Source: an uncultured Candidatus Peregrinibacteria bacterium (lineage in GTDB: Bacteria > Patescibacteriota > Gracilibacteria > Peribacterales > Peribacteraceae). From it: a stretch of DNA of 32,042 nucleotides. Positions 322 through 32,042 of the stretch are shown in pieces. The stretch lies in NCBI GenBank assembly GCA_903822115.1, contig CAIJNU010000060.1, positions 1-32,042 of the forward strand. The letters run 5' to 3'. Positions within the stretch are counted from its first letter, which is position 1; the number at the start of each line of letters is the position of its first letter. The position numbers and the translations under genes are program-made. Below the pieces are notes generated by a model. It did not search any database. It was not told where the DNA came from and saw nothing but the letters and a program-made list of their open reading frames with translations.

Positions 322-326
322 AGTTC

Positions 327-2176: not shown

Positions 2177-2227
2177 TAAAGAAATTCTATAGCCTTTTTG
2201 GCTTGAAATACACCAATTTTTGGCTGC

Positions 2228-3261: not shown

Positions 3262-3308
3262 ATTTGGCATTGTATAGAAAGGAATGAGTTAAAAGAATGG
3301 GATGAAAT

Positions 3309-3926: not shown

Positions 3927-3986
3927 TATTGCAAATCCTCCTGATCGCCCAGAGCGAAGGCGTTCTTTTTCTGATAGTTCCTGTGA

Positions 3987-4769: not shown

Positions 4770-5492
4770 ATGACGAAGTCAGTCTTAGTCTGTCTGCATG
4801 GATGGGGTGGATCCGGGGAGTCCTTCACCGAATTACACCAGGCTCTCGCAGGTAGCGGCATCGAAATCCTGACGCCGGACCTCCCGGGGTTCGGCGCTGA
4901 ACCTGAGCCTGCGAAGCCATGGTGCGTGGATGATTATGCTAAGTGGGTCGAAGCCTGGGTGAAGGAACACGCCGCCGATTCCCCGATCCAACTTCTCGGC
5001 CACTCGCACGGCGGAAGAGTCGCGATCAAGATCGCCGTGAACGGCAATCTGAAGATCGATCACCTCTACCTCTGCGCCGCCGCCGGTATTCCCCATCGAC
5101 GTAGGATGAGGAGAGCAGTAGGTTTTTTTCTCGCAAAGATCGGACGATTCCTCCTTTCTCCGTTCGGCTCCACATTCGCCGCCGGGGGGAAGAAGCTCCT
5201 CTACAAACTCTTCCGCGTACACGACTTCGAGAATGCCTCCGTCGTCATGCGGGAAACGATGATCAAGGTTTCCGGGGAAGATCTCCGACCGATCCTGCAT
5301 GACATCAACGTTCCCACGGACATCTTCTGGGGCACGGAAGACACCATGACGCCAGTTGCCGATGCAAAAGTAATGCACGAGGCCATCGAAGGCAGCGTGC
5401 TCCATCTCTATCCCGGGGTGCGGCATCGCGTCCACAGGGATCGCACGCGGGAAATCGCGGCCATTATTATCGAACGCAGCCGAATTTCGTGA
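4770..5492 (+). CDS. alpha/beta hydrolase fold protein
   Basis: VLVCLHGWGGSGESF (oxyanion region), the nucleophile elbow LLGHSHGGRVA (GHSxG) and a C-terminal HxxH region. The ORF opens at 4713. I prefer the ATG at 4770 (MTKSVLVCLHGWGG) because TATACT (4758-4763) lies 6 nt upstream. Confidence 0.8.
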   Translation: MTKSVLVCLHGWGGSGESFTELHQALAGSGIEILTPDLPGFGAEPEPAKPWCVDDYAKWVEAWVKEHAADSPIQLLGHSHGGRVAIKIAVNGNLKIDHLYLCAAAGIPHRRRMRRAVGFFLAKIGRFLLSPFGSTFAAGGKKLLYKLFRVHDFENASVVMRETMIKVSGEDLRPILHDINVPTDIFWGTEDTMTPVADAKVMHEAIEGSVLHLYPGVRHRVHRDRTREIAAIIIERSRIS

Positions 5493-7081: not shown

Positions 7082-7112
7082 AGTCGCTTACTTTTTCACC
7101 TACACTCTGTTC

Positions 7113-8348: not shown

Positions 8349-8357
8349 CATAGCAAC

Positions 8358-9419
8358 ATGGAAATTCGCCCCGCCACCGATCCCCTCTCTTGGGACAGTT
8401 TCCTCCTGTCGCAACAATTTCGTCCGTTCCTTCAGAGTTGGACGATGGGCGAGGTGTACCGGGACATCGGACAGGAACCGATCCGACTGGAGGCACAGCA
8501 AGACGGGAAGACCATCGGCATCTGCTTCGCGCACATCGTCCACGCGAGGCGCGGCAGACATCTATCCGTGCCCTACGGCCCCGTTGTCGCATCGCAGGAG
8601 GCGCTGACGGCGCTCCTCGAAGCACTGACGAAAGTGGCGCAAGATCACCAGTGTGCATTCGTTCGCATCAGTCCGTTCTGGCCGTCTTCCTCCCCCTTCA
8701 TCCACAACCTCCCGTCATCATCGCTATCTTCTCCGCTCCATCTCCTCGCAGAGCACCTCTGGTATCTTCCGCTTCGCTCACCTGATGTCTGGGACCCAAC
8801 GCCCGCTGCTGACCACGAAGAAGGTACGAGAATCACAGAGGAAGCTTTGATGGCAGGAATGCGCTCAACAGCCCGAAATCTCATTCGACGTGCGAAGAAG
8901 GAGGGCGTTACCGTGACGCGATCAATGGATCCAGTCACCGATCTCCCCTCTTTCCTCAATCTCCACGATGAGACGAGACGACGCCACCACTTCACACCGT
9001 ACTCCACGTCATTCTTCCGCGCCCAGGTCTCCCGATTCGCGCGCTCGGGCAACGTCGCCCTCTACCTCGCGCACTACCAAGGAGAGGTGATTTCCGCCTC
9101 CATCCACATGATATTCGGCGGCGAAACCAGCTACCACCACGGCGCGAGCACGCTCAAGTACCGAAACATTCCCTCGAGCTACCTGCTCCAGTGGACCGCC
9201 ATCTGCGATGCGCTCGAGAGAGGAGATCGCGTCTACAACTTCTGGGGTGTCTCTCCGGAAGGCGCGAAGAAGCATCCTTTCGCCGGCGTGCGCACCTTCA
9301 AGACCGCTTTCGGAGGGAATCTGCTGGAGATCGCACACTGCAGGGACATTCCCCTCTCTCCGCTCTACCATCTCACGCGCGCCGTCGAAACGTGGCGCAA
9401 GTGGCGACGGGGTTTTTGA
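8358..9419 (+). CDS. FemAB-family (aminoacyl-tRNA-dependent) peptidoglycan peptide-branch transferase
   Basis: FLQSWTMGEVY..., RSTARNLIRRAKKEGVTV, LHDETRRRHHF, LYLAHYQGEVISASIHMIFGGETSYHHGAS and SSYLLQWTAICDALERGDRVYNFWGV follow the FemX/FemA/FemB pattern. TAGCAT (8346-8351) lies 6 nt upstream of the ATG. Confidence 0.85.
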   Translation: MEIRPATDPLSWDSFLLSQQFRPFLQSWTMGEVYRDIGQEPIRLEAQQDGKTIGICFAHIVHARRGRHLSVPYGPVVASQEALTALLEALTKVAQDHQCAFVRISPFWPSSSPFIHNLPSSSLSSPLHLLAEHLWYLPLRSPDVWDPTPAADHEEGTRITEEALMAGMRSTARNLIRRAKKEGVTVTRSMDPVTDLPSFLNLHDETRRRHHFTPYSTSFFRAQVSRFARSGNVALYLAHYQGEVISASIHMIFGGETSYHHGASTLKYRNIPSSYLLQWTAICDALERGDRVYNFWGVSPEGAKKHPFAGVRTFKTAFGGNLLEIAHCRDIPLSPLYHLTRAVETWRKWRRGF

Positions 9420-9436
9420 GCGCGTATGCTGTGAGC

Positions 9437-9757
9437 ATGAAGCAAGAAGAAGCCCTGACCAACGAGGAGAGGCTCGACAGGATTCTCCTCCACCTGGAGC
9501 GTCTCGATCGCCGAGACAAGATACGAACGTGGGGCGGGCTCGTTCACGGTATCCTCTCGCTCATCCCCACCGTGCTCCTCCTCTTGGGGCTCTGGTACTT
9601 TTACAATAATAGTGCGGCAATCATGCAATCCATTACGCAGCAAGCTGCGCAACAGGCGGCCGCCGTCGCATCGGGCATCCAAAAGGGAGCGGCTGTCTCC
9701 CTCCCAATCACTCCAGATGTGATCAAGCAATTGAAGCAAGCACTACACCTAAAATAA
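9437..9757 (+). CDS. small single-pass membrane protein, hypothetical
   Basis: MKQEEALTNEERLDRILLHLERLDRRDKIRTWGG, then the TM helix LVHGILSLIPTVLLLLGLWYFY, then a Q/A-rich tail. The track ORF from 9191 overlaps femAB. ATG 9437 has TATGCT (9425-9430) 6 nt upstream. Confidence 0.55.
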   Translation: MKQEEALTNEERLDRILLHLERLDRRDKIRTWGGLVHGILSLIPTVLLLLGLWYFYNNSAAIMQSITQQAAQQAAAVASGIQKGAAVSLPITPDVIKQLKQALHLK

Positions 9758-9782
9758 AAGCACGCCTCTCGACGTGCTTTTT
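9757..9782. terminator. bidirectional rho-independent terminator between convergent genes
   Basis: AAAAGCACG-CCTCTCGA-CGTGCTTTTT: a 9-bp stem flanked by an A-run and a T-run. It lies between the stop at 9755-9757 (+) and the stop at 9802-9804 (-). Confidence 0.7.
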
Positions 9783-9801
9783 AAATGCCTAGAAATTTCG
9801 C

Positions 9802-11262
9802 TTACTTCACCAAGTGCAACACATCATCCGGCGTCATGGTTGGGGACACTGAGAAACTTGGCATGCTGAGGAATTGGCTGCGATTGACCTGCTTGTCCGG
9901 AATATTGCCGATACCGAAAAGGTAGCCGGCAGCAGCAGCCGTCTGCGCGACGCGGTCATTCACGCCGCCCTGCGGATAATCGATGGCAAAGACCGGCTTC
10001 GCCGTCATGTCCTCGAGGAGCTTGCGACTCTCCTGCACCTCCAGCGTCACCTGCGCATCTGTGAGCGCGCGCAGATCTTCGCCCGAGTGCCCCGCCGACT
10101 GGACATCGTATCCATTGGCGATGAGCGTGAGGAGCGTCTTCTGGGTAATGCCCGTAAGACCAACCTCTTTCGTCTGAATGAAGAACGTCGCCGGCACGCC
10201 AGCCGCCGAAAGCGCGTCAGATGCCGCCCGAATATTGCTCGCATTCAAGCCCTCGATCGCGACGACAACCGCCTTCGATGGAAGGCGCACATCCTTTGCT
10301 TCCTGCTGGATCACAATTTGTTGTACGTCTCGCATGAGAAGGAAGGTCAATCCCGCATTTTTCAGTTTCTGAAGTTGTGCGGGAAGGTTTTGCAATATGA
10401 CACTCTGACTCACGTCAAACTGGAGAATAGGAAGCGTAAATTTCTCCTGACGCACGATGAACGTCGGAGAGAACGACGCAATGTAGTCCATGGATACGTA
10501 AGCTTCCTTGCCATCAAATGAAATGCGCGCCCATCCCTTGTTGATCGAGAGAGGATGAAGGAATGTCAGATTGGGAATTTCCCCTATTTTCGCGCTCTTG
10601 GGATCCGCTTTCTGTCTAACATTCACATGAGCGTAGTGCACATAGTAGAGATTCGCGTACGGCTTCTTCTCATCAGCCAGACGATCACTCGTCGTGAGTC
10701 TTCCGAGGTACGTGATCGCGACGTATCCCGTCTGCCCGTCAGACATCTGTACTTTCGCCCATCCCGCATTCACGAATTCCACCACCGTCACCGCATCCCC
10801 GCGATTAAATCGGCCGATCTCCTTCCCCGAGACACTCGGCGACGACCGAATATTAAGAAACGAATTTGTAACCCTATAGACATTCCCCTGATCGACCGTC
10901 CCGCTCGCCCTCAACCCCTCATACTGCTTCACCATGGAGAGATCCAGAACCGGCGGTGCCTCCACTGCTGTTCCGCTCCCCGTCGTCGTATCCAAAGGAG
11001 CGAGAGAGGAAGCGACTGCGGTTCCGCTCGCCGTTCCAAGCCCCTGAGACGCCAAGCGTTGGAAACGAGCGATGTCCTGCTCGGTAAACGTGAGATTGTT
11101 CGCGTTCGAACCGGAAGACGTGGGAGGCTTCACAGGCGCGCTGCTACATCCCGCAAACAGAATGCCAAACGAGGCAATGAGGAGGAACGCCACGAGGGGT
11201 GCGACGAACGAGAATCGTTGGGCGCGCCTCGGGACTGCGCGGCGGGAACGGTAGCGAACCAT
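9802..11262 (-). CDS. lipoprotein with two SH3b domains and a C-terminal polysaccharide deacetylase (NodB/CE4-like) domain
   Basis: Signal peptide with lipobox (LLIASFGILFAGCSS). Two SH3b-like units (YRVTNSFLNIRSSPSVSGKEIGRFNRGDAVTVVE...GWAKVQMSDGQTGYVAITYL and YVHYAHVNVRQKADPKSAKIGEI...GWARISFDGKEAYVSMDYI). The C-terminal region ATFFIQTKEVG...ANGYDVQSAGHSGEDL is deacetylase-like. Confidence 0.7.
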   Translation of the reverse strand: MVRYRSRRAVPRRAQRFSFVAPLVAFLLIASFGILFAGCSSAPVKPPTSSGSNANNLTFTEQDIARFQRLASQGLGTASGTAVASSLAPLDTTTGSGTAVEAPPVLDLSMVKQYEGLRASGTVDQGNVYRVTNSFLNIRSSPSVSGKEIGRFNRGDAVTVVEFVNAGWAKVQMSDGQTGYVAITYLGRLTTSDRLADEKKPYANLYYVHYAHVNVRQKADPKSAKIGEIPNLTFLHPLSINKGWARISFDGKEAYVSMDYIASFSPTFIVRQEKFTLPILQFDVSQSVILQNLPAQLQKLKNAGLTFLLMRDVQQIVIQQEAKDVRLPSKAVVVAIEGLNASNIRAASDALSAAGVPATFFIQTKEVGLTGITQKTLLTLIANGYDVQSAGHSGEDLRALTDAQVTLEVQESRKLLEDMTAKPVFAIDYPQGGVNDRVAQTAAAAGYLFGIGNIPDKQVNRSQFLSMPSFSVSPTMTPDDVLHLVK

Positions 11263-13299: not shown

Positions 13300-14100
13300 A
13301 TGGATAAGCAATTGACGTGGGCAGGAAGTCTCCTCGTGACCTGTATCTTCTTTTCTGCATGCGGATCTTCGCATCCAAGCCCCCAACCAAAATCATCCAC
13401 AGGAAATATGATCGTAAAAGGAGAACCTCGCCCCAGCGCGAACCTCGGATTGTTTGTGTCCACGTACATAGGCGGTGGGGACACGACTCCTGCTGCTTCC
13501 GCACTTAAGGGGGTCGAAGCTCAAGTGAAACTGCACACGGAATTCAATCCGCTCGATAGCACCGATACCTTCTCACTGCTCAATGAATTCGGCTCCATCC
13601 TGCAGATTGATATTTCGGATCTGCTCAATCGTTCCACCGATCGACCGAAGACGCTCACGCAGTACACCGATAGTCTGAAGAACATAACGGCTCGCGCAAA
13701 GCAGACGGCGCAAGATTTGAGCGATCACGGGGACACGCTCAACAAAGACCTGCGCGATGCGCAGTCCAACCTCTCGAGTATCCGAAACAAATTGGATACG
13801 GCCAAGAATAAGAATGATTTCGCGACGGCGGGTGCACTGCAGAAGGATCTCGCTGATGCGCAGACCAAGGTGGGAGAGATCAACGCCAAAGAACAGGAGA
13901 ATAGAGACACTCTCACGACGTACCAGAATCTCATCGCCATCGCAGACCAACGCATCAAGGCCATCGAGCAGAATCGTGAAGCGCTGATTGCGGGAGTGAA
14001 GGTGATGGATATCCCCGGCGTTGATAATCTCGGAGTAATTCAGGGCCGATCGAGCCGTGCCGGCGGCACCTCGCTCTTCCAACCGCCCCCGAGCTTGTGA
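13300..14100 (+). CDS. lipoprotein with coiled-coil region, hypothetical (possible accessory of VirB4 module)
   Basis: MDKQLTWAGSLLVTCIFFSACGSS is a signal peptide plus lipobox. A long heptad-like charged region follows (KDLRDAQSNLSSIRNKLDTAKNKNDF...LQKDLADAQTKVGEINAKEQENRD). The track ORF starts at TTG 13264. Confidence 0.6.
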   Translation: MDKQLTWAGSLLVTCIFFSACGSSHPSPQPKSSTGNMIVKGEPRPSANLGLFVSTYIGGGDTTPAASALKGVEAQVKLHTEFNPLDSTDTFSLLNEFGSILQIDISDLLNRSTDRPKTLTQYTDSLKNITARAKQTAQDLSDHGDTLNKDLRDAQSNLSSIRNKLDTAKNKNDFATAGALQKDLADAQTKVGEINAKEQENRDTLTTYQNLIAIADQRIKAIEQNREALIAGVKVMDIPGVDNLGVIQGRSSRAGGTSLFQPPPSL

Positions 14101-14155: not shown

Positions 14156-14184
14156 TTGAGAAAAGGGGTGTTTTGTGCTATACT
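14156..14184 (+). promoter_or_regulatory. sigma70-like promoter upstream of the VirB4-like gene
   Basis: TTGAGA (14156-14161), a 17-nt spacer, TATACT (14179-14184). The GTG start at 14208 gives a leader of roughly 17 nt without a Shine-Dalgarno. Confidence 0.5.
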
Positions 14185-14207: not shown

Positions 14208-16370
14208 GTGGCAAACACACCTCCAATCCCAAAGGCCCCCCACACTCCTCCCCCGCTCCTCGTCGCCATCGACGATCTGCTGGGTCTCCATAACCAAGCC
14301 GAGACCGCACTGACGAAAGGGAACGAAGGAGAAACGCTCACGCCCGCCGAACGCGAATCCATCAAGCACTACGAGGAAGGATTGCAGAAAATCCTCGATA
14401 TCATCGCACCCTCCGCCATGGAGATTCGCAATACGGAGATCCTCCTCAATGATCAGTTCGTGCGGACGCTCTACGTGTACAACTGGCCGAACTACATCTT
14501 CCCCAACTGGCTCTCGCAACTCGTGAACACCGACGCGCAGATGGAGATCTCGCAGTTCATCTACCCCTCAAGCAACAAAGCCATCCTGAAAATGCTCCGC
14601 AAGAAAGTCGTGGAATTGCGATCATCGATCCGCATGCTCGAACAGCGCGGCATCGTCCGCGATCCGTCGCTCGAGGCGGCACTGCAGGACGCCGAAGAGC
14701 TTCGGGATCTGCTCGCACGAGGCCGCGAAAAGCTCTTCCAGCTCGGCATGTACGTCACGATCTACGCCGAGGACGAGGAGAAGCTCAAGAAGCTGCAGAC
14801 GGACATCGAATCGATGCTCGGAGGAAAGCTCGTACTCACGCGGCCGTCATACTTCCAGATGGAGCACGCGTTCACGTCGACACTCCCGCTGTGTCTCGAC
14901 GAACTGGAGATCAACCGCAACATGAACACGTCGCCGCTCTCGACGAGCTTCCCCTTCTCCAGCTCCGACCTCACGAGCGACCACGGAATTCTCTACGGCA
15001 TCAACCGCCACAACGAAAGTCTCGTCATCTTCGACCGCTTCGATCTACCCAATGCGAACGCAAACGTGTTCGCCATCTCCGGCGCAGGAAAATCGTTCGC
15101 GGTGAAGCTCGAGATTCTGCGCTCGCTCATGCTCGACACCGAAGTGCTCGTCGTCGATCCGGAGAACGAGTACGTCGACCTCTGCAAGACCGTCGGCGGA
15201 TCGTTCGTTCCCCTCTCGCTCCAGAGCTCCCTGCACCTCAACCCCTTCGATCTACCGCGCGCCGTTCGCGGAGAGGAAGCGGAGACGGGAGAAGTGCTGC
15301 GCGCGGCCACCATCAACCTCCACGGACTCTTCAAGCTCATGCTCGGCAGCCTGACGCCCGCGGAAGATGGCATCTTGGACAAGGCAATCATCGACACCTA
15401 CGCGCTCAAGGGCATCGCTCTCACGACGCCCAACCCCGGCAGCAACGAACCGCCCACGCTCCACGACCTCGTCGACGTACTCCTGACAACGGAGGGCGGC
15501 GAGAACATGGCAAAGGTGCTCCAGAAGTACACAGCCGGAAGCTACGCGGGCATCTTCGATCAGCAGACGAACGTGAAGATGGAGAACCAGCTCGTCGTCT
15601 TCCAGATTCGCGATCTCGAGGAGCAGCTGCGTCCCATCGCGATCTACATCGTGCTGAACTTCCTCTGGAATAAGGTGCGAAGCGAACTCAAGAAGCGCTA
15701 TCTCGTCATAGATGAAGCGTGGAACCTGATGCAACACGAGGATTCCGCGCGCTTCCTCTTCGGCATCGTGAAGCGGGCGCGCAAGTACTTCCTCGGCATC
15801 ACGACGATCACGCAGGACATCGAAGACTTCGTGAATTCGCCCTACGGAAAACCGATCATCACGAACTCCTCGCTCCAGATCCTCCTGCGCCAGTCCCCCA
15901 CCGCCGTCGACAACCTCCAGAAACTCTTCTACCTCACGGAGGGTGAGAAGTACGTCCTTCTCAACTCCGGCATCGGGCAGGGAATCTTCTTCGCCTCCAA
16001 CAAGCACGTCGCCATCGAGATCATCGCGAGCCCCTCGGAGGCGGCGATCATCACCACGAAGCCGGAGGAAATCCTCGCGAAGCGTGCGGAGCAGGCCATC
16101 GTGGAGCGAGAGAAAGTCATCCAGGCACGCAAGCAGGGCGTCGATGCCCAGAACGTCAATCTCCCGCTCGCTTCAGTGCAACCGTCAACTCCGACTGCGG
16201 CACCGACCCCCGTCCCCGAGGGCCATCCCGCAACTGAACCGGTCCCGCTCACGCCTTCCACACCCGTCCCAACACCGACACCCCCTGCGGAAAAAAAGAC
16301 AGAGCAGCCGCAAACATCTGCGACACCGCTGACCCAGGTGACGCCACCACCGGAAGCGATGCCTCAGTGA
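14208..16370 (+). CDS. virB4: VirB4/TraC/PrgJ-like type IV secretion ATPase with Pro/Thr-rich C-terminal tail
   Basis: Walker A FAISGAGKSFAVK, LHLNPFDL, Walker B RYLVIDEAWNLM and ITTITQDIEDF. The N-terminal region is typical of Gram-positive-type VirB4 (RTLYVYNWPNYIFPNWLSQL). The last ~68 aa (about 16164-16367) are P/T/A-rich low complexity. Confidence 0.85.
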   Translation: MANTPPIPKAPHTPPPLLVAIDDLLGLHNQAETALTKGNEGETLTPAERESIKHYEEGLQKILDIIAPSAMEIRNTEILLNDQFVRTLYVYNWPNYIFPNWLSQLVNTDAQMEISQFIYPSSNKAILKMLRKKVVELRSSIRMLEQRGIVRDPSLEAALQDAEELRDLLARGREKLFQLGMYVTIYAEDEEKLKKLQTDIESMLGGKLVLTRPSYFQMEHAFTSTLPLCLDELEINRNMNTSPLSTSFPFSSSDLTSDHGILYGINRHNESLVIFDRFDLPNANANVFAISGAGKSFAVKLEILRSLMLDTEVLVVDPENEYVDLCKTVGGSFVPLSLQSSLHLNPFDLPRAVRGEEAETGEVLRAATINLHGLFKLMLGSLTPAEDGILDKAIIDTYALKGIALTTPNPGSNEPPTLHDLVDVLLTTEGGENMAKVLQKYTAGSYAGIFDQQTNVKMENQLVVFQIRDLEEQLRPIAIYIVLNFLWNKVRSELKKRYLVIDEAWNLMQHEDSARFLFGIVKRARKYFLGITTITQDIEDFVNSPYGKPIITNSSLQILLRQSPTAVDNLQKLFYLTEGEKYVLLNSGIGQGIFFASNKHVAIEIIASPSEAAIITTKPEEILAKRAEQAIVEREKVIQARKQGVDAQNVNLPLASVQPSTPTAAPTPVPEGHPATEPVPLTPSTPVPTPTPPAEKKTEQPQTSATPLTQVTPPPEAMPQ

Positions 16371-17870: not shown

Positions 17871-18752
17871 ATGACGTCCTCTCCGATCACCATTCTCTTC
17901 CTCGGAACATCGCCCTTCGCCGTTCCCGCGCTGGATGCCCTCGCCGGTGACTCTCGCTTCTCCGTGCTCGGTGTCGTCACGCAGCCCGACAAGCCGGTTG
18001 GGCGCAAGCAAGCCCTGACGCCGCCACCGGTGAAGGTACGAGCGGAGAGCCTCGGACTCAGAGTCACGCAACCGGAGAACCTCCGAAATGAATTCCCGCT
18101 TCTCTCCCTCCCCCGCCCCGACTTCCTCGTCACCGTGAGCTACGGCCAGATCCTCTCGCGGGAGGTTCTGGACTTCGCGAACGTTGCGCCGATCAACGTC
18201 CACGCCTCACTGCTGCCGCGGTGGCGCGGAGCCGCTCCGATCCAGAATGCCATCCTCGCTGGCGACAGTGAAACCGGCGTGACCATCCAGAGAATGGTGG
18301 AGGAACTCGACGCGGGGCCGATCTACGCCCATCAGAGCACGGAGATAGGAAAGCGAGAAACGACGACGTCCCTGCACGATCGACTGAAGGAAATCGGCGC
18401 CTCTCTCCTTGTGCGCACCCTCGTCGATCTCCCAGATCTGCGCCCGCAGGAAGGACCCATCGTCCTCTGCAAGAAACTCTCCAAACGCGACGGCGACGTT
18501 GACGTCAGTCTTCTCACGGCGGAGGAAATCGATCGTCGCGTCCGCGCACTGAACCCATGGCCGGGAGTCACGATCAACACGGAGGGCTCCCCCCTCAAAC
18601 TACTCGAGACTTCCCTCACTGCGGATACCGAAACCCATCCTCTGACGTGCAACGGAGAAATGCTCCTGCACCTGAGACGTGTTCTACCTGCCGGCGGTCG
18701 CCCGATGAGCGGCGCGGCATGGGCAAGAGGGAGGTTTCCCTCTCACGCTTAA
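17871..18752 (+). CDS. fmt: methionyl-tRNA formyltransferase
   Basis: ILFLGTSPFAVPALDAL...VVTQPDKPVGRKQ, NVHASLLPRWRGAAPIQNAILAGDSETGVTIQ and a C-terminal Formyl_trans_C-like region. TACACT (17858-17863) lies 7 nt upstream of the ATG. Confidence 0.95.
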   Translation: MTSSPITILFLGTSPFAVPALDALAGDSRFSVLGVVTQPDKPVGRKQALTPPPVKVRAESLGLRVTQPENLRNEFPLLSLPRPDFLVTVSYGQILSREVLDFANVAPINVHASLLPRWRGAAPIQNAILAGDSETGVTIQRMVEELDAGPIYAHQSTEIGKRETTTSLHDRLKEIGASLLVRTLVDLPDLRPQEGPIVLCKKLSKRDGDVDVSLLTAEEIDRRVRALNPWPGVTINTEGSPLKLLETSLTADTETHPLTCNGEMLLHLRRVLPAGGRPMSGAAWARGRFPSHA

Positions 18753-19033
18753 AGCTTCGTCTTCATCTCCTGAAACGCCTCGATGAATTTATCGAGGTCC
18801 TCGACGTCGAACATGATCGTCGTCTTCTGGCCGCCCCTCGATTTTTCCGAAACCTTGAAGAACTTGCCGTTCCCCGACTCCTTCAAATCGATGTAGAACG
18901 TGCGCTGGCGAGCGTGGATCGTGACGGAATGAAGGTCCTGTGCGAACCTTCCGCCTCCCTGATTCGCAGGCTTGGGTAAGGTGCCGCCGAGCGCATCGCC
19001 GTCTTGGGACTGGGCTCCCGTGAGCTCCGACAT
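18749..19033 (-). CDS. PUR-alpha-like nucleic-acid-binding protein (bacterial DUF3276-type)
   Basis: RFAQDLHSVTIHARQRTFYIDLKESGNGKFFKVSEKSRGGQKTTIMFDVEDLDKFIEAFQEM looks like a PUR repeat. The track ORF runs to 19153. I prefer the ATG at 19033 because TATGTT (19041-19046, minus) lies 7 nt upstream. Its stop overlaps the fmt stop (TTAA at 18749-18752). Confidence 0.6.
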   Translation of the reverse strand: MSELTGAQSQDGDALGGTLPKPANQGGGRFAQDLHSVTIHARQRTFYIDLKESGNGKFFKVSEKSRGGQKTTIMFDVEDLDKFIEAFQEMKTKL

Positions 19034-19153
19034 TGGGTCAAACATAAGAAGAGGGAAAATGATGAATCGCTGCTCCCTTCTCCACTCCCTGCGCGAACGC
19101 CAAGGCCGATTGGGAAGCGACCGCATCCTAGCAAAGCGAGTCGCGGGAGACAA

Positions 19154-20692
19154 CTATTTGACGAGAGGCGCAAAGAGGATGTTCGGCTCACCGACCTTCG
19201 TCCAGTTCTCTTCGCCACCCCACTCCTTCATCCGCTCCGTGATGACGAAATCCTTTTCCAACATCATCGCGGCACAGGGAAGATTGAGCTGCCGCGCCAT
19301 CTCCTGCGCCGTATGCGGGACGAAGGGAAGGAGCATGAGCGTGATGTGACGAAGAAGTTCTGCGAGAGCGCTCAACTCTTTCTTTTTTTCCTCACCTTTC
19401 AATGTCCAGAGCTTGTGCACATCGATGTAGATGTTTCCGCTGAGGCAAAGATTGAACACAGCTTGAATGGCATTCTGCAATTCAAAAGAATCCATGCCTT
19501 TTCCGAAATCCTCCCAACGCTGCTTCGCTTCCGCGCGAAGCGCATGCTGTTCAATGATCAACGATCCATCTCCATCTTTTCGCAGTAGCACCAAGATGCG
19601 ATTCAATAAATTCCCCAACTGATTCCGCAATTTTGCATCGTAAATTTCATCGATCCTCTTCCAAGAAAAATCGCCATCGTTGCCAACGGGAATCTCGTGG
19701 CTGAGGTAGAGACGCAGCGGATCGGGATTGCCGCCGAAGTGGCTCAAAACCTCTTCGGGTTGGACAATATTGCCGACCGTCTTGCTCATCTTCTGCCCCT
19801 CGCTCGTGAGGAACCCGTGGATGAGGAGACGCTGCGGCGGCGGGACCTGCAATCCCGCATTCTTCAACATCGCGGGCCAGATCAATGCGTGAAACCTCGC
19901 GATGTCCTTGCCGATCACGTGCGTCACCTCCGCCCCCTCCCACCACTGTGACTCCTGCATCGGTGTGAGGTAGCCGAGTCCCGAGATGTAATTCGAAAGG
20001 GCATCGCACCAGACATACATCGTCTGTTCATCGTCGTCGGGAACGGGAATGCCCCAACTGAGGCTCGACTTCGGTCGGGAGAAAGAGACATCCTCCAGAC
20101 CCTGCTCGATAAGCGACAACGTCTCGGGGGCGCGATGATCCGGAACAATGCGATAACCATCCGGCTCCGTCAGAAGCTTCTTCAGCCATTCCCCTTCCCG
20201 GCCAAGCAGGAAGAACCAATTGGATTCCGTCACCTCTTCGGGCTTCGCCTGATGAATGGGGCAGACGCCGTCCTGCAGATCGCGCGCCGTCAGGAAGCGC
20301 TCGCATCCCTGACAGTAGAGTCCCGTGTAGGATTGCTTTTCAAGAGCGCCGCTCTCCGCGAGCTTCTTCCAGAGCGCCTGCACCGTAGGCCAGTGACGAG
20401 TACGATCGGTGGTGCGAATGAAGAAGTCGGAAGAGATGTGAAGACGACGGTAGAGATCCTCGTAGAGCGCGGCGAAGCGATCGACGAATTGTTGAGGATC
20501 GACTTCCGCTTTCGCGGCCGCACGCTGCACCTTCACGCCGTGCTCGTCCATGCCGATCTGAAAGCGCACCTCATGACCGCTCAGGCGCATCCAGCGCGCG
20601 CAAACATCCGCCAGAATCTTCTCCATCACGTGCCCCATGTGCGGAGCAGCGCTGGCGTAGTCGATAGCGGTGGTGATGTAACGGCGAGACAT
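19154..20692 (-). CDS. metG: methionine--tRNA ligase (short form, no C-terminal tRNA-binding appendage)
   Basis: ITTAIDYASAAPHMGHVMEKILADV (HIGH region), CQGCERFL...CPIHQ (zinc knuckle), KMSKTVGN (KMSKS) and an anticodon-binding helical C-terminus. TACAAT (20699-20704, minus) lies 6 nt upstream of the ATG. Confidence 0.95.
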   Translation of the reverse strand: MSRRYITTAIDYASAAPHMGHVMEKILADVCARWMRLSGHEVRFQIGMDEHGVKVQRAAAKAEVDPQQFVDRFAALYEDLYRRLHISSDFFIRTTDRTRHWPTVQALWKKLAESGALEKQSYTGLYCQGCERFLTARDLQDGVCPIHQAKPEEVTESNWFFLLGREGEWLKKLLTEPDGYRIVPDHRAPETLSLIEQGLEDVSFSRPKSSLSWGIPVPDDDEQTMYVWCDALSNYISGLGYLTPMQESQWWEGAEVTHVIGKDIARFHALIWPAMLKNAGLQVPPPQRLLIHGFLTSEGQKMSKTVGNIVQPEEVLSHFGGNPDPLRLYLSHEIPVGNDGDFSWKRIDEIYDAKLRNQLGNLLNRILVLLRKDGDGSLIIEQHALRAEAKQRWEDFGKGMDSFELQNAIQAVFNLCLSGNIYIDVHKLWTLKGEEKKKELSALAELLRHITLMLLPFVPHTAQEMARQLNLPCAAMMLEKDFVITERMKEWGGEENWTKVGEPNILFAPLVK

Positions 20693-20785: not shown

Positions 20786-21175
20786 TCAAGCCCCTCCTCC
20801 CGCCGCAGCCGTGAGCAGTGTCACGGCATAGACGATGACGGCATCCGCGACCATCGCAGCAATGAGGCCGATGACGACGTTCGTCGCGATCTTCTTGGCT
20901 TCGTTGAACCCCTCCTCGTTTCCGCCGCCCGACATCATCTTCACGCCGGCGTAGATCAACATCGCCACTCCCACTCCCGCGATGAGACCGAGGATCGTCG
21001 TGTTGATTTTGCCAAAGAGCGTATCGGGCAGATTCGCGCCCTCGGAGCTCATCGGAAAAACATCTTTGATCTGGGACCACATGTCCGAGATGCCCGGCCC
21101 GCTCCCGATCTGATCCAGCGTCACAGCGGAAGCCTTGGGAATGAACAAGCCGAGAATGGTGAGAAAAAAATTCAT
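20786..21175 (-). CDS. VirB2/TrbC-like T4SS pilin-type small membrane protein
   Basis: Signal peptide MNFFLTILGLFIPKASA, then two hydrophobic helices joined by a short polar loop (LIAGVGVAMLIYAGVKMMSGGGNEEGFNEAKKIATNVVIGLIAAMV). The M-x-SGG loop motif is shared with the neighbouring paralogues. Only 4 nt separate it from the upstream gene. Confidence 0.55.
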   Translation of the reverse strand: MNFFLTILGLFIPKASAVTLDQIGSGPGISDMWSQIKDVFPMSSEGANLPDTLFGKINTTILGLIAGVGVAMLIYAGVKMMSGGGNEEGFNEAKKIATNVVIGLIAAMVADAVIVYAVTLLTAAAGGGA

Positions 21176-21179
21176 GGTA

Positions 21180-21773
21180 TTACCAGGAAATCGTACGGTT
21201 CACGAACGCTTCGACGATTGCGCGCGCGGCATTCACAATGATAGCGCCGATGAACGCCCAGAGAATCGTCGTACCGCCTTTGTGGAATGCATCTTGCTTC
21301 CCTTGTGAAATCGCCATACGGAATCCCGCGATGATGACGACGACTGCCACCGCCACGTTGAAGAGAGCAAGCGCAATCCGCACGAACGCCGGAAGGAAAG
21401 ATGAGAAGACGAAGTCCCCGCCACCACCGCCCTGTCCAAAGTTCTCCGTGACGACGAACGAAACGAGCGAACTCGCGCTCAGTGCAAGAGCGAGTCCTCC
21501 GAGTCCGAACGTAATGCTCTTGCGGCCGTTGCCCGCTTTCGCATCATCGCCGTTACTGAACACCATCAGGAACCCTCCCCAGATGATTGCGAGGATCGCT
21601 CCCGCCGCCGCCGCTTCGAGGAGGAGACTGGAAATGGCGGGAACCACACTGGTCGCAAGCACGTTGGCCGGAGGCGAGTCGCAACCGGGAATGCCCTTGC
21701 AACGCACGATCGGCGGTTCCGCGGCAAATGCCTGGAAAGAGGAAGCGACGATGGAGAAGAGACGCACGATCAT
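21180..21773 (-). CDS. tandem (fused double) VirB2/TrbC-like pilin-type membrane protein
   Basis: Signal peptide MIVRLFSIVASSFQAFAA and a Cys pair CKGIPGC. Two helix-loop-helix units (AILAIIWGGFLMVFSNGDDAKAGNGRKSITFGLGGLALAL and VAVVVIIAGFRMAISQGKQDAFHKGGTTILWAFIGAIIV) are joined by a GQGGGGG linker. The start at 21773 overlaps the upstream stop (ATGA). The track ORF extends to 21848. Confidence 0.5.
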   Translation of the reverse strand: MIVRLFSIVASSFQAFAAEPPIVRCKGIPGCDSPPANVLATSVVPAISSLLLEAAAAGAILAIIWGGFLMVFSNGDDAKAGNGRKSITFGLGGLALALSASSLVSFVVTENFGQGGGGGDFVFSSFLPAFVRIALALFNVAVAVVVIIAGFRMAISQGKQDAFHKGGTTILWAFIGAIIVNAARAIVEAFVNRTISW

Positions 21774-22153
21774 CCGACTTTGAAGAAAGAAGCATTGATC
21801 GTATGCAATATCACTCCGACGAGGAGCAGAAGGAGAAGCCCCAGACATGCCGCTTGCACCTGCTTGATGGATGCGCTGCGCTTACTCTGATCGCCCCCCG
21901 ACATGATCACACCGGTCATGCCCCACAGCCCCCACACGACGGCGATGCCCGCCGCGACTCCCTCCGCCCACGGCAGAAGTTCATTGATATACGAGAGGAA
22001 GACGTCGAACGGTTTGCCCGTCGTAGGAATGGAGGTGAGCCCGCCGATGGGCTGGAGCAACTGGATATCGGCACTCGCGATGAGCGGCCACAGGAAGACG
22101 AGGAGGCCGCTTGCGAGCGTCAGAAGCCGGGCGTTTCTACGCTTCAGAGTCAT
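21770..22153 (-). CDS. VirB2/TrbC-like T4SS pilin-type small membrane protein
   Basis: MTLKRRNARLLTLASGLLVFLWPLIASA signal peptide, then AAGIAVVWGLWGMTGVIMSGGDQSKRSASIKQVQAACLGLLLLLLVGVIL. The track ORF extends to 22246. ATG 22153 has TGGTATACT (an extended -10) 6 nt upstream. Confidence 0.55.
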   Translation of the reverse strand: MTLKRRNARLLTLASGLLVFLWPLIASADIQLLQPIGGLTSIPTTGKPFDVFLSYINELLPWAEGVAAGIAVVWGLWGMTGVIMSGGDQSKRSASIKQVQAACLGLLLLLLVGVILHTINASFFKVG

Positions 22154-22159
22154 CACACT

Positions 22160-22168
22160 AGTATACCA
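22160..22168 (-). promoter_or_regulatory. extended -10 promoter element for a leaderless pilin operon
   Basis: The minus strand reads TGGTATACT-AGTGTG-ATG. TATACT corresponds to plus 22160-22165 and the upstream TGG to 22166-22168. Confidence 0.45.
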
Positions 22169-22388: not shown

Positions 22389-22490
22389 GATTGTTATGAG
22401 AATGAGCCATTTCAAGACAGGATGCAGGATGCCACGGCGTAGTCCCGGCGTAACGGAGTGCAGCCGGACGAAGCCGGGCAGAATGATTCA

Positions 22491-22730
22491 ATGTACTTTG
22501 TCTATCTTCTTCAGTCCGCGCGTATTCCCGAGCGAAAGTACGTCGGTATCAGCGATGACCCACTTCGCCGACTTGCAGAGCATAATAAAGGTCACAGCAC
22601 TCATACGAATAGATTCAAGCCATGGAACCTCATGACCTATGTGGCATTCGATAACCTATCAAAAGCACAATCTTTTGAACGCTATCTTAAATCCCATTCC
22701 GGTCGAGCATTTGCAAAAAGACATTTATGA
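22491..22730 (+). CDS. small GIY-YIG nuclease-domain protein
   Basis: MYFVYLLQSARIPERKYVGISDDPLRRLAEHNKG...SHSGRAFAKRHL is a GIY-YIG core (Y-x-Y...YVG...R...H N) of 79 aa. The track ORF starts at 22458. ATG 22491 has CAGAAT (22479-22484) 6 nt upstream. Confidence 0.75.
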   Translation: MYFVYLLQSARIPERKYVGISDDPLRRLAEHNKGHSTHTNRFKPWNLMTYVAFDNLSKAQSFERYLKSHSGRAFAKRHL

Positions 22731-28161: not shown

Positions 28162-29541
28162 ATGTCACAGCAAGCAGCGTCATTCCAAGCGGCGAATAAC
28201 GATCGAAACTTTTCGCGGAAGCTGGAATACGCTCTGCTACTGACGTTCCTGTTCTCGCGTCTCTGGCTCTTCGTCGCACGATGGGGTGATGGAGTCGGCT
28301 GGGACGTCGGTGCGCACCTGCAAATGTTGTACACATGGCCGTGGAGTCCCGGCGCATGGAGCATCCAAACACAGTTTTACGCCTATCATCCGCCGCTGGC
28401 CTTCCTCCTACCGCGCCTGCTACTCGTCATGGGCATGAGCTCCATTACGAGCGTGCAAGTAATTTCAGCGTTGGCATCCATCATCGGCTTTCTCTTCCTC
28501 AGGCAATCACTCAAGTTCCTCCACGTGCTGCACACGTGGCACGGCCTCCTCTTCCTCTACATCACGTCCTCGTTGCCAATACAGATCTATTTGGCACGGA
28601 GCATCAATATGGACGTCCTCGTGTACGCGGAGGCGTGCGCCGTCCTCTCCTTCTCGCTGCGCGTGTTCTTCGCCGATACATTTCCGTCGCAGCATCCTCA
28701 TGCCGTCTTGGATATCGCACTTCTCATTCTCTGCCTCGTCCTCGGACTCTTCACGAAGTACTCCGGCCTCCTCCTACTTGGCATCCCCTTCCTGCTGGCC
28801 TTCTTCTCGCCCACCTCGCCCTCACCATCCGCATCCCGAAGCTTAATGCGACGTCTGTGTCTCGCTTGCTGCATCGGTGCTATCGCCGCGGGGTTGGCAT
28901 TCCCCTACTACTTCGAACGCTACGAGAAGCAGGAGGGACGATTCCTGCCAGTGAATATCGAACTCGCGAAATTCGGAAGAGTCACGACGGCAATGGAGAG
29001 ACTTCGACGCGATCAACATCGCATCGCATTCGTCAAATCACTCCTCTGGGGAACATCGAAGGGGACGCAGCCCATGCAGGATCGGGATCAACAAGTGCTG
29101 CGCATGCTCAATACGTGGAAAGACGTATGGAGCGCAAACGTAAAAAACATCCTTCAGTCTCCCCTCTCCCTAGCATTGAGCGTCATCTATGCGAATCTCT
29201 CACTGGTATTTCTCACAATCGGATGCATATATGCCGTTGTCCGATCCTCCCTGCGAACGGCGTGGGATCGTTTCGGCTGTGTACTCGTCACATTCGCACT
29301 CGTGGAAATCGCCGCACTGATCTTCTACACCTACGAATATCCGCATCCGATCGGGGTGGAAAATAAGGCGATCTACATCGCTCCCGCACTCCTCGGATTC
29401 GGTTACCTCATCACGCTGACAAGTCGCATGGCTGGCACGATCCAAATACCGAAGTCGCTCGTGAGCAAAATTTTCATCGGCATTGGCATCATCTCGGTGA
29501 GCTGTTTCATGATATTCAACACCGTGCTGCCCGTTTATTGA
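28162..29541 (+). CDS. polytopic membrane glycosyltransferase, GT-C fold (PMT_2/ArnT-like)
   Basis: At least 10 predicted TM helices. The first loop, with WGDGVGWDVGAHL...FYAYHPPLAFLLP, resembles ArnT/PMT-type lipid-carrier-dependent glycosyltransferases. Confidence 0.55.
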   Translation: MSQQAASFQAANNDRNFSRKLEYALLLTFLFSRLWLFVARWGDGVGWDVGAHLQMLYTWPWSPGAWSIQTQFYAYHPPLAFLLPRLLLVMGMSSITSVQVISALASIIGFLFLRQSLKFLHVLHTWHGLLFLYITSSLPIQIYLARSINMDVLVYAEACAVLSFSLRVFFADTFPSQHPHAVLDIALLILCLVLGLFTKYSGLLLLGIPFLLAFFSPTSPSPSASRSLMRRLCLACCIGAIAAGLAFPYYFERYEKQEGRFLPVNIELAKFGRVTTAMERLRRDQHRIAFVKSLLWGTSKGTQPMQDRDQQVLRMLNTWKDVWSANVKNILQSPLSLALSVIYANLSLVFLTIGCIYAVVRSSLRTAWDRFGCVLVTFALVEIAALIFYTYEYPHPIGVENKAIYIAPALLGFGYLITLTSRMAGTIQIPKSLVSKIFIGIGIISVSCFMIFNTVLPVY

Positions 29542-29543
29542 TC

Positions 29544-30599
29544 TTATGCCGAAACGTTCGGGAGGGATCGGTACAGCTCCTCCGTCTGCGCATCGTACGG
29601 CGTCGCCGCAGTCTGGTACGCCGTGGAACCTGTGACGAGTCCAAGTGCCTTCTCGAAATCCATTTCCTCTCGCGGCAAATCGCAGAATTGAAGCAACTGA
29701 GAAACAGCGCTCTCCTTGTCCCCGATCAAACTCCGCGAATCAAGCCAGTGAATATTGGGAATGCCGGCATAGAATTTTTTCGCGAACGCATACGCATCCC
29801 CCCACTGCAACAAATAACCCTCGTAGTCTTCGCCCCTCTCCCAGTGTTCCAACGTTTTCTCGCTGCGCCCTCCCTCCAGGCAAATCGGTCTACGCAACGG
29901 GCCGAATTCAAAGTGCCCAAGGATTTCGAGTCGCTTCGCGAAGTACTTGTCGTCTCGAGACATCGCCGTGAACTTCGCATGCACTCTCGCGAGCGAGTGC
30001 GCGTGCTCGAAAGGATTTCTCACGCAGAGAATAATCTTGGCGTCCGGAAAAAGCTTCGTAATGTATCGGAGGCGATAGAGATTGTAATTTCCCTTGGAGA
30101 GGTAACGCCGCTTCCCGCCCCTCACGTAGAGCACCTTGTTCATTGCTACCGGGAGCAATTCTTCGAGTTTTGAATTGGCGTAACTCTCGTCTCTGACGGC
30201 ACAGAAACCGTCGGGATCGTAGTCGGGGAGAGCATTCCTCCAGAGGAGTTCCTCGAAGGCATCGGGCGAGTGCGGATCGATGGAGATCTGATCTCCGTGC
30301 TCCCGCATCACCGGCCGTTGATTGCCGTAGTACAGAGAAGCGACGAAGTGCCAGAAGTACGGAATTTCCACGAAAGGCAGATCGCAGTAGAGGAAGGATC
30401 CCGCCTGGGGATGCGCGTTGAGGATGTGCGTGACGACCGTCGTACCGGATCGCGCGAGGCCGCAGACGAAGATCGGGCTGCGGATACCCTTGGCAATGCG
30501 CTTGCCCAATACGGACGTTTCAAGATCGGACCAAAGACGAAGCAAGCCCGGATGCCGGCGGACGAAAGCGAGGTGGAGATAACTTTCGAGTCCGGGCAT
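29544..30599 (-). CDS. PAPS-dependent sulfotransferase family protein
   Basis: 5'-PSB loop FVCGLARSGTTVVTHIL and a 3'-PB-like CVRNPFEHAHSLARV. The track ORF extends to 30716 and overlaps the upstream gene by 109 nt. I prefer the ATG at 30599 (MPGLESYL...) with TAACTT (30605-30610, minus) 5 nt upstream. Confidence 0.75.
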   Translation of the reverse strand: MPGLESYLHLAFVRRHPGLLRLWSDLETSVLGKRIAKGIRSPIFVCGLARSGTTVVTHILNAHPQAGSFLYCDLPFVEIPYFWHFVASLYYGNQRPVMREHGDQISIDPHSPDAFEELLWRNALPDYDPDGFCAVRDESYANSKLEELLPVAMNKVLYVRGGKRRYLSKGNYNLYRLRYITKLFPDAKIILCVRNPFEHAHSLARVHAKFTAMSRDDKYFAKRLEILGHFEFGPLRRPICLEGGRSEKTLEHWERGEDYEGYLLQWGDAYAFAKKFYAGIPNIHWLDSRSLIGDKESAVSQLLQFCDLPREEMDFEKALGLVTGSTAYQTAATPYDAQTEELYRSLPNVSA

Positions 30600-30607
30600 G
30601 TGACAAG

Positions 30608-32042
30608 TTAGGTACTGCTCGAGAGCGGCATCGCATTCTCGTATGAGAATGTAGATCCATCCCCCTGGAAAATCAAAGATTTCGTACAGGAGTCTGACAT
30701 CACTTGCTTCGGACAATTCAGAACAAACATGGACGCGGTATGATTGGCGTACGGACGCTCTTCTTGCACGATAGTGCGGTATGCATCGAGGGGATGCGTC
30801 TTCCCCCTCCAGTAACTTCCAAAGTAATCATTCCCCGTTGCCCCCCACATCCCCAGAAGCTTGCGAGAGGCGATGTCGAATTCGTCGATGCGCGATGTCC
30901 CATTCGGGGATGTAGAACTTCTGCCTTTATTGTCGAAAACGAGGAGCGTCCCTTTTTCCGTGATCGTCGGATCGTGCTGCCGCACGAACGTATTTTGTAA
31001 TACCCATTTCACTTCGGATGTATCCTTATCAAGAAGAATGATGGTATTGATATTTCTCATCGAGATGAGCATGTCGCCGACCTTCCCGTGCGGAAAGTAA
31101 CTCGCCGTTTTCACATCTTTGAGAACCTTGATGCTATTGAGATGCAATGGGTCCGCGCAATTACTGATACTCTTGCGAACGGCATCTCCTCCCTCTTTCA
31201 TGGAAGCGAGAATTGTCAAAAGATCAATGGTCTTGAGGAGCTTCCCCGTTTGCACGTCCAGGAGCGCCACACCTTCAAAATGAGAGTTCGACACGTCGCA
31301 GCTTGCGAACTTGCCGCCAAGCTTCAGGGAAACATTATTGGGAATGCGTACGAATTTCCTCTCGGGCTGATAGATCACGTTGTCAAACGCATCACCCCAA
31401 TGATGCAAATGGTAAGTGGGAATTTCTCTCTCCCATAACTTTCGCAATACATTGTTCTCAATCACCGCCCTGACGAGTCGTTGGGATCCCCAGGGATTCT
31501 GAATATAGATAATGGAATTGTCTGGAAGAACGGTGAGCAAAGACACGTGTTGCTCTGTCAAAGGAGTAAGCGTATTGCCATCGAGTAGCACCAGTCCTTG
31601 CCGGACGAAGGAGATGAGAATCTTTGAGGTAAGGGGGTAATCGAAAAGACGAAGATGTGAGAGCGTACTTTGCAATGCCTGTTTCACAGTTGAATCCAAA
31701 GTTATTTTGCCATTAGAGGCATTGAAGTAATGAATGGGAGTGACATCGCTCTTGAGAAAAACCATGGATCCATCCATCCAGGTATTCACCTGAAACAAAT
31801 TATTCACTGCAATGAAATTGCCGAGGACAAACGGAATAAAAAGAAATACATGCCGTACAAAAAAACGGTTTGCTCTCTTCCATTTGGTTGTCTTGATCTT
31901 GTGGTAGGTAAAATAGAGCGAAATCGAGAGAAGCACTATCAGAAGAAACAAAATGGCATTGCGATAATCTCCAAGTCTCCCCAACCACCAACCGGCATAG
32001 GCAGTGATGACTGAAAGCGAGAAAATGAACCAGATTCTGAAA
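30608..32042 (-). CDS. arylsulfotransferase (ASST)-like protein with N-terminal membrane helices, partial (runs off right edge)
   Basis: HHWGDAF...DPLHLNSIKVL...GDMLISMRNINTIILLDKDTSEVKWVL resembles the ASST beta-propeller family. The track start (TTG at 31984) is probably not real. The frame stays open to 32042 and encodes further hydrophobic sequence (FRIWFIFSLSVITAYAGWWLG...). GC samples are 32-45%. Confidence 0.55.
   Translation of the reverse strand, partial: FRIWFIFSLSVITAYAGWWLGRLGDYRNAILFLLIVLLSISLYFTYHKIKTTKWKRANRFFVRHVFLFIPFVLGNFIAVNNLFQVNTWMDGSMVFLKSDVTPIHYFNASNGKITLDSTVKQALQSTLSHLRLFDYPLTSKILISFVRQGLVLLDGNTLTPLTEQHVSLLTVLPDNSIIYIQNPWGSQRLVRAVIENNVLRKLWEREIPTYHLHHWGDAFDNVIYQPERKFVRIPNNVSLKLGGKFASCDVSNSHFEGVALLDVQTGKLLKTIDLLTILASMKEGGDAVRKSISNCADPLHLNSIKVLKDVKTASYFPHGKVGDMLISMRNINTIILLDKDTSEVKWVLQNTFVRQHDPTITEKGTLLVFDNKGRSSTSPNGTSRIDEFDIASRKLLGMWGATGNDYFGSYWRGKTHPLDAYRTIVQEERPYANHTASMFVLNCPKQVMSDSCTKSLIFQGDGSTFSYENAMPLSSST

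Follow-up and report, generated by a model that had tools for sequence, protein, structure and literature searches.

The 32,042-nucleotide stretch of DNA analysed here (the window) comes from the genome of an uncultured member of the Peribacteria, within the Candidate Phyla Radiation (CPR), and has three adjoining minus-strand genes in the region 20,786-22,168, here called P1, P2, and P3. The trio probably encodes VirB2-like pilins of the PF18895 type that belong to a chromosomal type IV secretion system (T4SS) of Peribacteria/Peregrinibacteria. Judged by sequence comparison with relatives, the three are real genes under purifying selection. An earlier note, made from the letters of the window, had described three consecutive minus-strand genes with an ATGA overlap and a 4-nt gap, lying 4.4 kb from a virB4 gene with five genes in between. 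All of these coordinates check out: the P2 ATG overlaps the P1 TGA as ATGA, the P2/P3 gap is 4 nt (TACC), and the end of the virB4-like gene is 4416 nt from the P3 stop, six coding sequences (CDS) away, with nrnA (DHH/DHHA1), rbfA, fmt, a PurA-like gene, and metG between them. The loop motifs that the note had named, as well as the Cys pair CKGIPGC and the linker GQGGGGG, were all located in the proteins, with IMSGG in P1, SNGD and SQGK in P2, and MMSGG in P3. None of the outcomes that the note had listed as refuting its interpretation came about. The features of the trio are as follows:

22160-22168 (-): extended -10 box TGGTATACT, 6 nt upstream of the P1 ATG
21770-22153 (-): P1, 127 aa, predicted single-unit VirB2-like pilin; ATG at 22153, TGA at 21770-21772; N-terminal signal peptide MTLKRRNARLLTLASGLLVFLWPLIASA, then the conserved exposed segment LL(Q/E)PIGG..IPT, helix, SGGDQSKRS loop, helix
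21180-21773 (-): P2, 197 aa, predicted two-unit VirB2-like pilin; ATG at 21773, TAA at 21180-21182
21723-21773 (-): P2 signal peptide, residues 1-17, MIVRLFSIVASSFQAFA, with an AXA site, read from sequence
21681-21701 (-): P2 Cys pair CKGIPGC, residues 25-31, in an N-terminal segment predicted to face outward
21441-21665 (-): P2 unit 1, residues 37-111; helix, SNGDDAKAGNGRK loop, helix
21417-21437 (-): P2 linker GQGGGGG, residues 113-119, Gly-rich, between the units
21183-21416 (-): P2 unit 2, residues 120-197; helix, SQGKQDAFHKGG loop, helix
20786-21175 (-): P3, 129 aa, predicted single-unit VirB2-like pilin; signal peptide ending PKASA, then the conserved exposed segment (I/L)(E/D)Q(I/L)GSGxPGI..MW, helix, SGGGNEEG loop, helix

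Pilin family membership and the duplication in P2

Two Pfam hidden Markov models (HMMs) bear on the identity of the trio: PF18895 (T4SS_pilin, "Type IV secretion system pilin"), with a gathering cut-off of 26.6 bits, and PF04956 (TrbC/VirB2), with a cut-off of 27.9 bits. P2 (in two stretches) and P3 each match PF18895 with 37.5 bits, above the curated cut-off and over the full model, and P1 has a match of 19.5 bits, below the cut-off. Within the P1 set, which comprises window P1 and orthologues from eleven related genomes, 12 of 12 proteins match PF18895 at E <= 0.01, with a best E of 2.2e-11. The same model is matched by 108 of 109 full-length relatives of P2, 15 of which also match PF04956 at E <= 0.01; one of these relatives (P0005, 63% identical to P2) reaches 29.7 bits over the whole TrbC/VirB2 model, against the cut-off of 27.9. 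HMMs built from the pilin units were matched in the window solely by the P1, P2, and P3 open reading frames (ORFs). On this profile evidence P2 and P3 belong to the T4SS_pilin family, and P1 probably does too. Word-indexed protein searches with P1 and P3 each gave the query itself and one close orthologue only, so their orthologues were taken from related genome loci, and a tblastn search of 72,556 plasmids with P3 gave no match, that is, no close relative on sequenced plasmids.

Signal peptides followed by helix/loop/helix units had been proposed in the earlier note, and this topology proves compatible with that of pilins by hydropathy and in the AlphaFold2 (AF2) models. The leaders end in A-x-A sites that were read from sequence and are conserved in orthologues (cut shown by a hyphen: ASA-D in P1, AFA-A in P2, ASA-V in P3), and P2 orthologues have comparable hydrophobic N-termini closing in A-x-A. 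Beyond the leader there are two hydrophobic segments in P1 and in P3, and four in P2; in P1 the hydrophobic segments, leader included, are residues 8-30, 65-84, and 94-127. The AF2 model of P2 has four long helices (44-71, 77-109, 126-155, and 160-195; mean predicted local distance difference test score, pLDDT, 68.9), and that of P3 has one helical hairpin (49-82 and 87-124). Charges read from the sequence (a net acidic or neutral character for the outward segments, a net basic one for three of four loops) fit a predicted topology in which both ends are outside and the loop is in the cytoplasm. With both ends outside, the C-terminus of P2 unit 1 and the N-terminus of unit 2 would lie on the outer side, where a short flexible linker could join them. 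Residues 113-120, which contain this linker, have pLDDT below 50, and the linker differs from one homologue to another in both length and sequence, consistent with flexibility.

The note had also called the middle gene an intragenic duplication. Profiles were made from the orthologue sets of P1, the P2 N-unit (P2N), the P2 C-unit (P2C), and P3, and were compared by hhalign:

P2N with P3: E = 1.4e-16
P1 with P2N: E = 2.7e-12
P2N with P2C: E = 4.1e-11, over 70-82 columns
P2C with P3: E = 6.8e-11
P1 with P3: E = 4.2e-9
P1 with P2C: E = 7.5e-5

In the control the columns of one partner were reversed, which retains its composition and hydrophobic segment structure. The off-diagonal reversed comparisons gave E = 0.08-0.57 (0.08-0.12 for pairs with P2 unit 1), and the best reversed self-comparison gave 7e-4. 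When the P2 halves are aligned directly as a pair, the alignment runs for 68 residues without a gap and has z = 4.2 relative to shuffles, and the P3 and P1 HMMs each match both halves of P2. The profile comparisons, the reversed controls, and the gapless alignment together lead to the conclusion that the four units are homologous and that P2 is a true intragenic tandem duplication of the pilin unit, with a compositional artefact excluded.

The two-unit form is not confined to the window. P2 has 14 full-length homologues of 189-224 aa, in which C25, G30, and C31 are invariant; these positions are at least 90% conserved in the 109 relatives. A profile search gave a two-unit pilin family of 139 representative clusters at E <= 1e-30, most of 185-225 aa and matching end to end. 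Of 165 retrieved proteins, 130 contain two units and 31 contain between three and eight, and an N-terminal C-x3-6-C pair is present in 104 of 121 two-unit proteins. Metagenomic poly-pilins of 350-820 aa with 4-8 tandem PF18895 units were also seen (P0018, P0019, P0035, P0040, P0052, P0116, and others); some of them match TrbC/VirB2 strongly as well. P0018 has eight PF18895 stretches in 820 aa, and P0035 has seven in 583 aa as well as a TrbC match of 90.8 bits. A further protein (P0032, 355 aa) combines a P1-like unit and a double pilin in one chain, the former P2 leader serving as linker. Two origins are conceivable for it, a natural P1-P2 fusion and a frameshift or read-through where genes meet at an ATGA-type junction, and as a fusion it gives a Rosetta-stone hint that P1 and P2 act together.

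Conservation, gene starts and promoter

A scan of one genome per species gave ten relatives, all labelled Candidatus Peribacteria, Peribacteraceae, or Peregrinibacteria. In tblastn searches with the window proteins, the order P1-P2-P3-metG-PurA-like-fmt-(rbfA)-nrnA-virB4-lipoprotein-argS recurred in all related contigs whose flank was long enough. The P1 proteins of the relatives are 32-74% identical to that of the window, and the values for P2 and P3 are 36-73% each; with L004, the closest relative, set aside, identity is 32-49% for P1, 36-49% for P2, and 36-45% for P3. VirB4 is 69-88% identical and has the same relative position throughout. The split between virB4 and the pilin genes, which the earlier note had proposed as a test of co-occurrence, is kept in nine of the nine related contigs whose DNA reached the virB4 position. 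Orthologues of P1, P2, and P3 were found in at least 14 independent related contigs, with fixed copy number and order and one-to-one orthology, and even the most distant double pilins (32-38% identity) still lie between P1-like and P3-like genes, followed by metG and the PurA-like gene. Against a 73%-identical relative, the ratio of nonsynonymous to synonymous substitution rates (dN/dS) is 0.13 for P1, 0.10 for P2, and 0.26 for P3; for the first two, dS is close to saturation. The trio showed no sign of either recent amplification or gene conversion. The persistent order, the orthology, and the dN/dS values indicate that the trio is an old, fixed set under purifying selection, and on these comparisons recent amplification is excluded.

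Conservation extends to the N-terminal segments predicted to be exposed, where the motifs LLEPIGG..IPT (P1), C.GLPGCG (P2), and IEQLGSG.PGI..MW (P3) are strongly conserved; the P3 orthologue alignment also has A17, W33, F40, P41, K94, and G103 invariant. The three paralogues probably have distinct, non-redundant structural roles, because they are separately retained and their outward N-terminal motifs are conserved rather than variable. The opposite view, that such paralogues are interchangeable and provide surface variation or host range, was proposed for Patescibacterial pilin arrays by analogy with the VirB2 arrays of Bartonella and Anaplasma (PMC12102498). The paralogues of those arrays are about 25% identical on average (PMC12102498), and the members of the trio are similarly divergent from one another. 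However, the set is fixed as P1, double P2, and P3 in one-to-one orthology, with dN/dS of 0.10-0.26 and exposed segments among its best conserved parts, all of which speaks against interchangeable variants, and we consider variation a very improbable explanation of this locus.

Some gene predictions differ from the starts used here. Longer starts (P1 from GTG 22246, P2 from ATG 21848) and a database call of 146 aa for P1 were considered and rejected. The longest-ORF and 146-aa calls are probably too long, because the extensions take in the conserved -10 box and orthologues begin at the shorter positions. A reading in genetic code 25 (TGA = Gly), which would fuse P1 and P2, was also rejected, since code 11 gives metG, argS, and virB4 at full length.

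The extended -10 box that the note had placed in front of the operon lies exactly 6 nt before the P1 ATG. The window and nine of eleven relatives share the full TGnTATAmT box, placed 6-8 nt upstream of the P1 start, with the surrounding upstream DNA diverged; a tenth relative (L011) has CGCTATACT at this position, with the TATACT hexamer kept and no TG, and another (L013) has TGGTAAAAT at 11 nt from the P1 start. A two-hexamer promoter scan gave no site upstream of P1, since a -35 box is absent. A -10 box that abuts the P1 AUG would put the start of transcription at or next to the AUG, which suggests that the P1 mRNA is leaderless or nearly so. The sole other strict TGnTATA[AC]T match on either strand of the window is TGCTATACT, upstream of virB4, and the T-rich tract and (TG)nTATAmT upstream of virB4 are conserved in nine relatives. 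The extended -10 box is probably the general strong-promoter form of the lineage and not a signal specific to the T4SS. At the other end of the trio, co-transcription of the pilin genes with metG (and the PurA-like gene) is plausible, because no terminator-like site was found in the P3-metG gap and the genes are co-directional in all relatives.

VirB4, neighbouring genes and known systems

The main neighbouring genes and sites are as follows:

19154-20692 (-): metG, 93 nt downstream of P3; Pfam tRNA-synt_1g
18749-19153 (-): PurA-like gene, beyond metG on the same strand
14208-16370 (+): VirB4-like T4SS ATPase of monoderm (MPF-FATA, CD1110) type, with a conserved GTG start
14176-14184 (+): extended -10 box TGCTATACT, 23 nt upstream of the virB4 GTG start, after a T-rich tract
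13300-14100 (+): predicted lipoprotein with lipobox FSAC and a long coiled coil; no Pfam family

VirB4 matches NCBIfam NF045971 (CD1110 family) with 354.8 bits, above the cut-off of 325, in agreement with the MPF-FATA ancestry reported in the literature, and has Pfam matches to P-loop_TraG, TraC_F_IV, and CagE_TrbE_VirB. The lipoprotein gene adjoins virB4 in eight of the eight relatives with DNA reaching there, with 33-69% identity; L008 was left out of this count, as its fetched DNA stops 170 nt past virB4. The lipoprotein has weak coiled-coil matches only in NCBIfam. It may be a lineage-specific T4SS accessory candidate, possibly an analogue of the VirB8/PrgL type.

Pilin genes of this kind have been reported from other CPR bacteria. 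Predicted pilins lie in series within the essential T4SS cluster of Ca. Southlakia epibionticum, a saccharibacterium (Wang et al. 2023, PMC10633639). A search of 3,035 Patescibacteria genomes with PF04956 and PF18895 found VirB2-like pilins and virB4 in 1,948 assemblies, with a pilin within 20 CDS of virB4 in 1,135, and 441 arrays of 2-11 pilin genes, whose paralogues may aid adaptation to different hosts (Quinonero-Coronel et al. 2025, PMC12102498). According to a 2025 review, the potential to build conjugative pili sets CPR systems apart from those of all other monoderms (PMC12857230). With three tandem pilin genes six CDS from virB4, the trio falls within the published definition of an array (2-11 tandem pilin genes, within 20 CDS of virB4; PMC12102498). 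It resembles these arrays, including the six-pilin array of Ca. Southlakia epibionticum ML1, in the Pfam family, in having tandem divergent paralogues on a CPR chromosome, and in having a monoderm MPF-FATA-like VirB4 nearby (within 20 CDS), without a relaxase or coupling protein near (PMC12102498, PMC10633639, PMC12857230). It differs in being a fixed one-to-one trio across Peribacteria with one covalent two-unit member that has an invariant Cys pair, and in lying within a string of housekeeping genes (metG, PurA-like, fmt, rbfA, and nrnA), outside any T4SS cluster. The arrays in the cited papers are mainly from Microgenomatia and Saccharimonadia, and fused pilins were not found mentioned there. 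In the literature searched, no description was found of fused, tandem, or double pilins, PF18895, or Peribacteria pilins of this kind, which is not proof of novelty; relative to that literature, the fixed trio with its double pilin is new, and the array as a kind is already published.

Three other groups of systems have partial likeness to the trio. The diderm TrbC/VirB2 pilins (PF04956), for example Agrobacterium VirB2, RP4 TrbC, and F TraA, also have a signal peptide, two helices with a short polar loop, and a VirB4 ATPase, and form extracellular pili that contain bound phospholipid where structures have been solved; however, the host here is a monoderm and one subunit has two units, and the window proteins have neither a PF04956 match nor a sequence or fold match to solved pilins. 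The archaeal Ced/Ted DNA-import pilins (PMC9905601) are alike in having VirB2-type pilins, a VirB4-family ATPase, no outer membrane, and no relaxase, but the window VirB4 matches CedB only weakly and below threshold (42.9 bits, against a cut-off of 700). The Mbov_0395 family pilin-like conjugal transfer protein (NF045849), from mycoplasma integrative and conjugative elements, belongs to a monoderm MPF-FATA-type system, and all three proteins match it weakly over most of the 80-position model (E = 4e-4 to 4e-3); at 17-20 bits, far under the cut-off of 40, this is a lead and not membership.

The window has several other features. The PurA-like protein is small and bacterial, matches the eukaryote-type PurA (PUR-alpha) repeat that binds single-stranded DNA or RNA, and is always encoded after metG in relatives. 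At 22458-22730 (+) a stand-alone 90-aa GIY-YIG nuclease-domain protein is encoded, overlapping the start of an inositol monophosphatase gene (22727), and the relatives L003, L008, L009, and L015 also have small GIY-YIG genes of a similar kind, located upstream of the trio by a few kb. A cell-wall cluster at 5489-11262 has genes for a Mur-ligase-like protein, a DegT aminotransferase, a FemAB-family peptidyltransferase, and a protein with SH3 and polysaccharide deacetylase domains. A membrane protein with about ten transmembrane helices and no family match (28162-29541, +) adjoins two sulfotransferase-type genes (29544-31984, -); this polytopic ORF was tried as a VirB6 candidate and rejected, having no family match and no syntenic counterpart in relatives. 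Positions 1-4000 have a G+C content of 0.46-0.48, compared with 0.55-0.59 elsewhere, with genes for a large serine recombinase (377-2176, -), a cupin, a B3/4-domain protein, and an ORF without family, and may be an integrated element. The G+C content also dips at 26-27 kb and 31-32 kb.

Readings of the trio and their meaning

If the trio encodes pilins of a T4SS, a sequence of events can be proposed. The operon would give a leaderless mRNA, probably by constitutive transcription, and each pilin would be inserted by Sec and its signal peptide cleaved after AXA, leaving a hairpin with both ends outside and a mostly positive loop in the cytoplasm. In P2 the flexible Gly linker would tie the outer C-terminus of unit 1 to the outer N-terminus of unit 2. 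By analogy with VirB2 pilins, the VirB4 ATPase would extract the subunits from the membrane to form a short pilus or a wall-spanning conduit, which might be used for contact with a host cell or for exchange of material. The filament may be heteromeric, with the double pilin and its invariant Cys-x-G-x-P-G-Cys loop in two neighbouring positions or acting as a nucleating, base, or tip module. Filament formation, like a heteropolymeric structure or a role at the tip or base, is an inference.

Several results weigh against assigning the trio to a T4SS pilus. The earlier identification with VirB2/TrbC pilins holds for PF18895, which P2 and P3 pass and P1 orthologues match, but not for PF04956, which window P1, P2, and P3 do not match even at E <= 10; by profile comparison their relation to that family is remote, family-level homology, with direct membership excluded. 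The link between P1 and the P2 C-unit is weak (E = 7.5e-5). The P3 model, made from a two-sequence alignment, is of low confidence (mean pLDDT 51.9). Profile searches of PDB sequences with the P1, P2, and P3 family alignments found no solved pilin, and Foldseek comparison of the P2 and P3 models to the PDB gave no match at E <= 0.001 and no pilin among its returns. The Foldseek returns were G-protein-coupled receptors, chemoreceptor and HtrII hairpins, and similar generic helical hairpins; the method is uninformative for short helical hairpins and its result is no evidence against pilins. The partner machinery is incomplete here, with no homologue of VirB3, VirB6, VirB8, or VirD4 in the window, and the linkage to housekeeping genes could partly be frozen gene order and not function.

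Taken furthest, such points would make these small secreted or membrane proteins unrelated to any T4SS, the PF18895 matches being a product of generic two-helix hydrophobicity and the constant distance to virB4 one of frozen synteny. The genes do lie amid housekeeping genes and are probably co-transcribed with metG, the structure searches gave no pilin, and short transmembrane proteins are prone to compositional matches, as scattered weak matches to unrelated membrane families in this work illustrate. But reversing the profile columns abolishes the similarity between units, the PF18895 matches cover the full model above a curated cut-off, some relatives pass the TrbC/VirB2 cut-off, and such pilins are essential in another CPR bacterium, where they sit within the T4SS cluster (PMC10633639). 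The reversed-profile controls and the co-occurrence with virB4 in every contig extending far enough make a trio without relation to a T4SS unlikely, and we give this explanation very little credence.

A different possibility keeps the T4SS and removes the pilus: the VirB2-family proteins would stay in the cytoplasmic membrane as a translocon, where the double pilin with its four transmembrane helices replaces VirB3/VirB6-like channel subunits. It draws on the lack of VirB3 and VirB6 homologues in the window, and the four long P2 helices of the AF2 model could pack as a bundle. The order Peribacterales is one that we take to be included in GTDB class Gracilibacteria. For that class, VirB6 is reported absent and VirB3 and TrsD unlinked to virB4 (PMC12102498), and monoderm conjugation systems are generally without pili (PMC10633639, PMC12857230). 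However, the family signature is that of a pilin (PF18895, with PF04956 in some relatives), the Cys pair and the conserved, outward-facing motifs of the N-termini suggest a role at the exposed surface, and VirB6 has at least five transmembrane helices and a different family profile. A purely membrane-embedded role is therefore doubtful.

For the trio as pilins that leave the membrane, a more specific proposal can be made tentatively, although we think it rather improbable as stated. Concatenated VirB2-like pilins might be an undescribed assembly device of monoderm CPR T4SSs, templating a heteromeric filament as its nucleus, base, or cap, so that the trio would be a three-component pilus. Equally tentatively, one such polypeptide might fill neighbouring protomer positions in systems without a recognisable VirB5 and, in this lineage, VirB6.

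Viewed as gene finding alone, the locus adds one more expected case to a class already published. Its wider meaning comes from the group, since CPR/Patescibacteria are the sole monoderms so far reported to pair a Gram-positive-type T4SS with VirB2-like pilins, and in the sole genetically tractable CPR species the T4SS with its pilin array is essential for life on the host cell. The -10 box abutting the start codon provides a testable prediction of promoter and leaderless mRNA for an uncultured group. A small fixed set of three subunits with a natural tandem pilin, whose linker limits the possible subunit contacts, would be a tractable target for modelling and cryogenic electron microscopy. In this lineage at least, the trio speaks for multiple pilins as structural partners and against their being antigenic variants.

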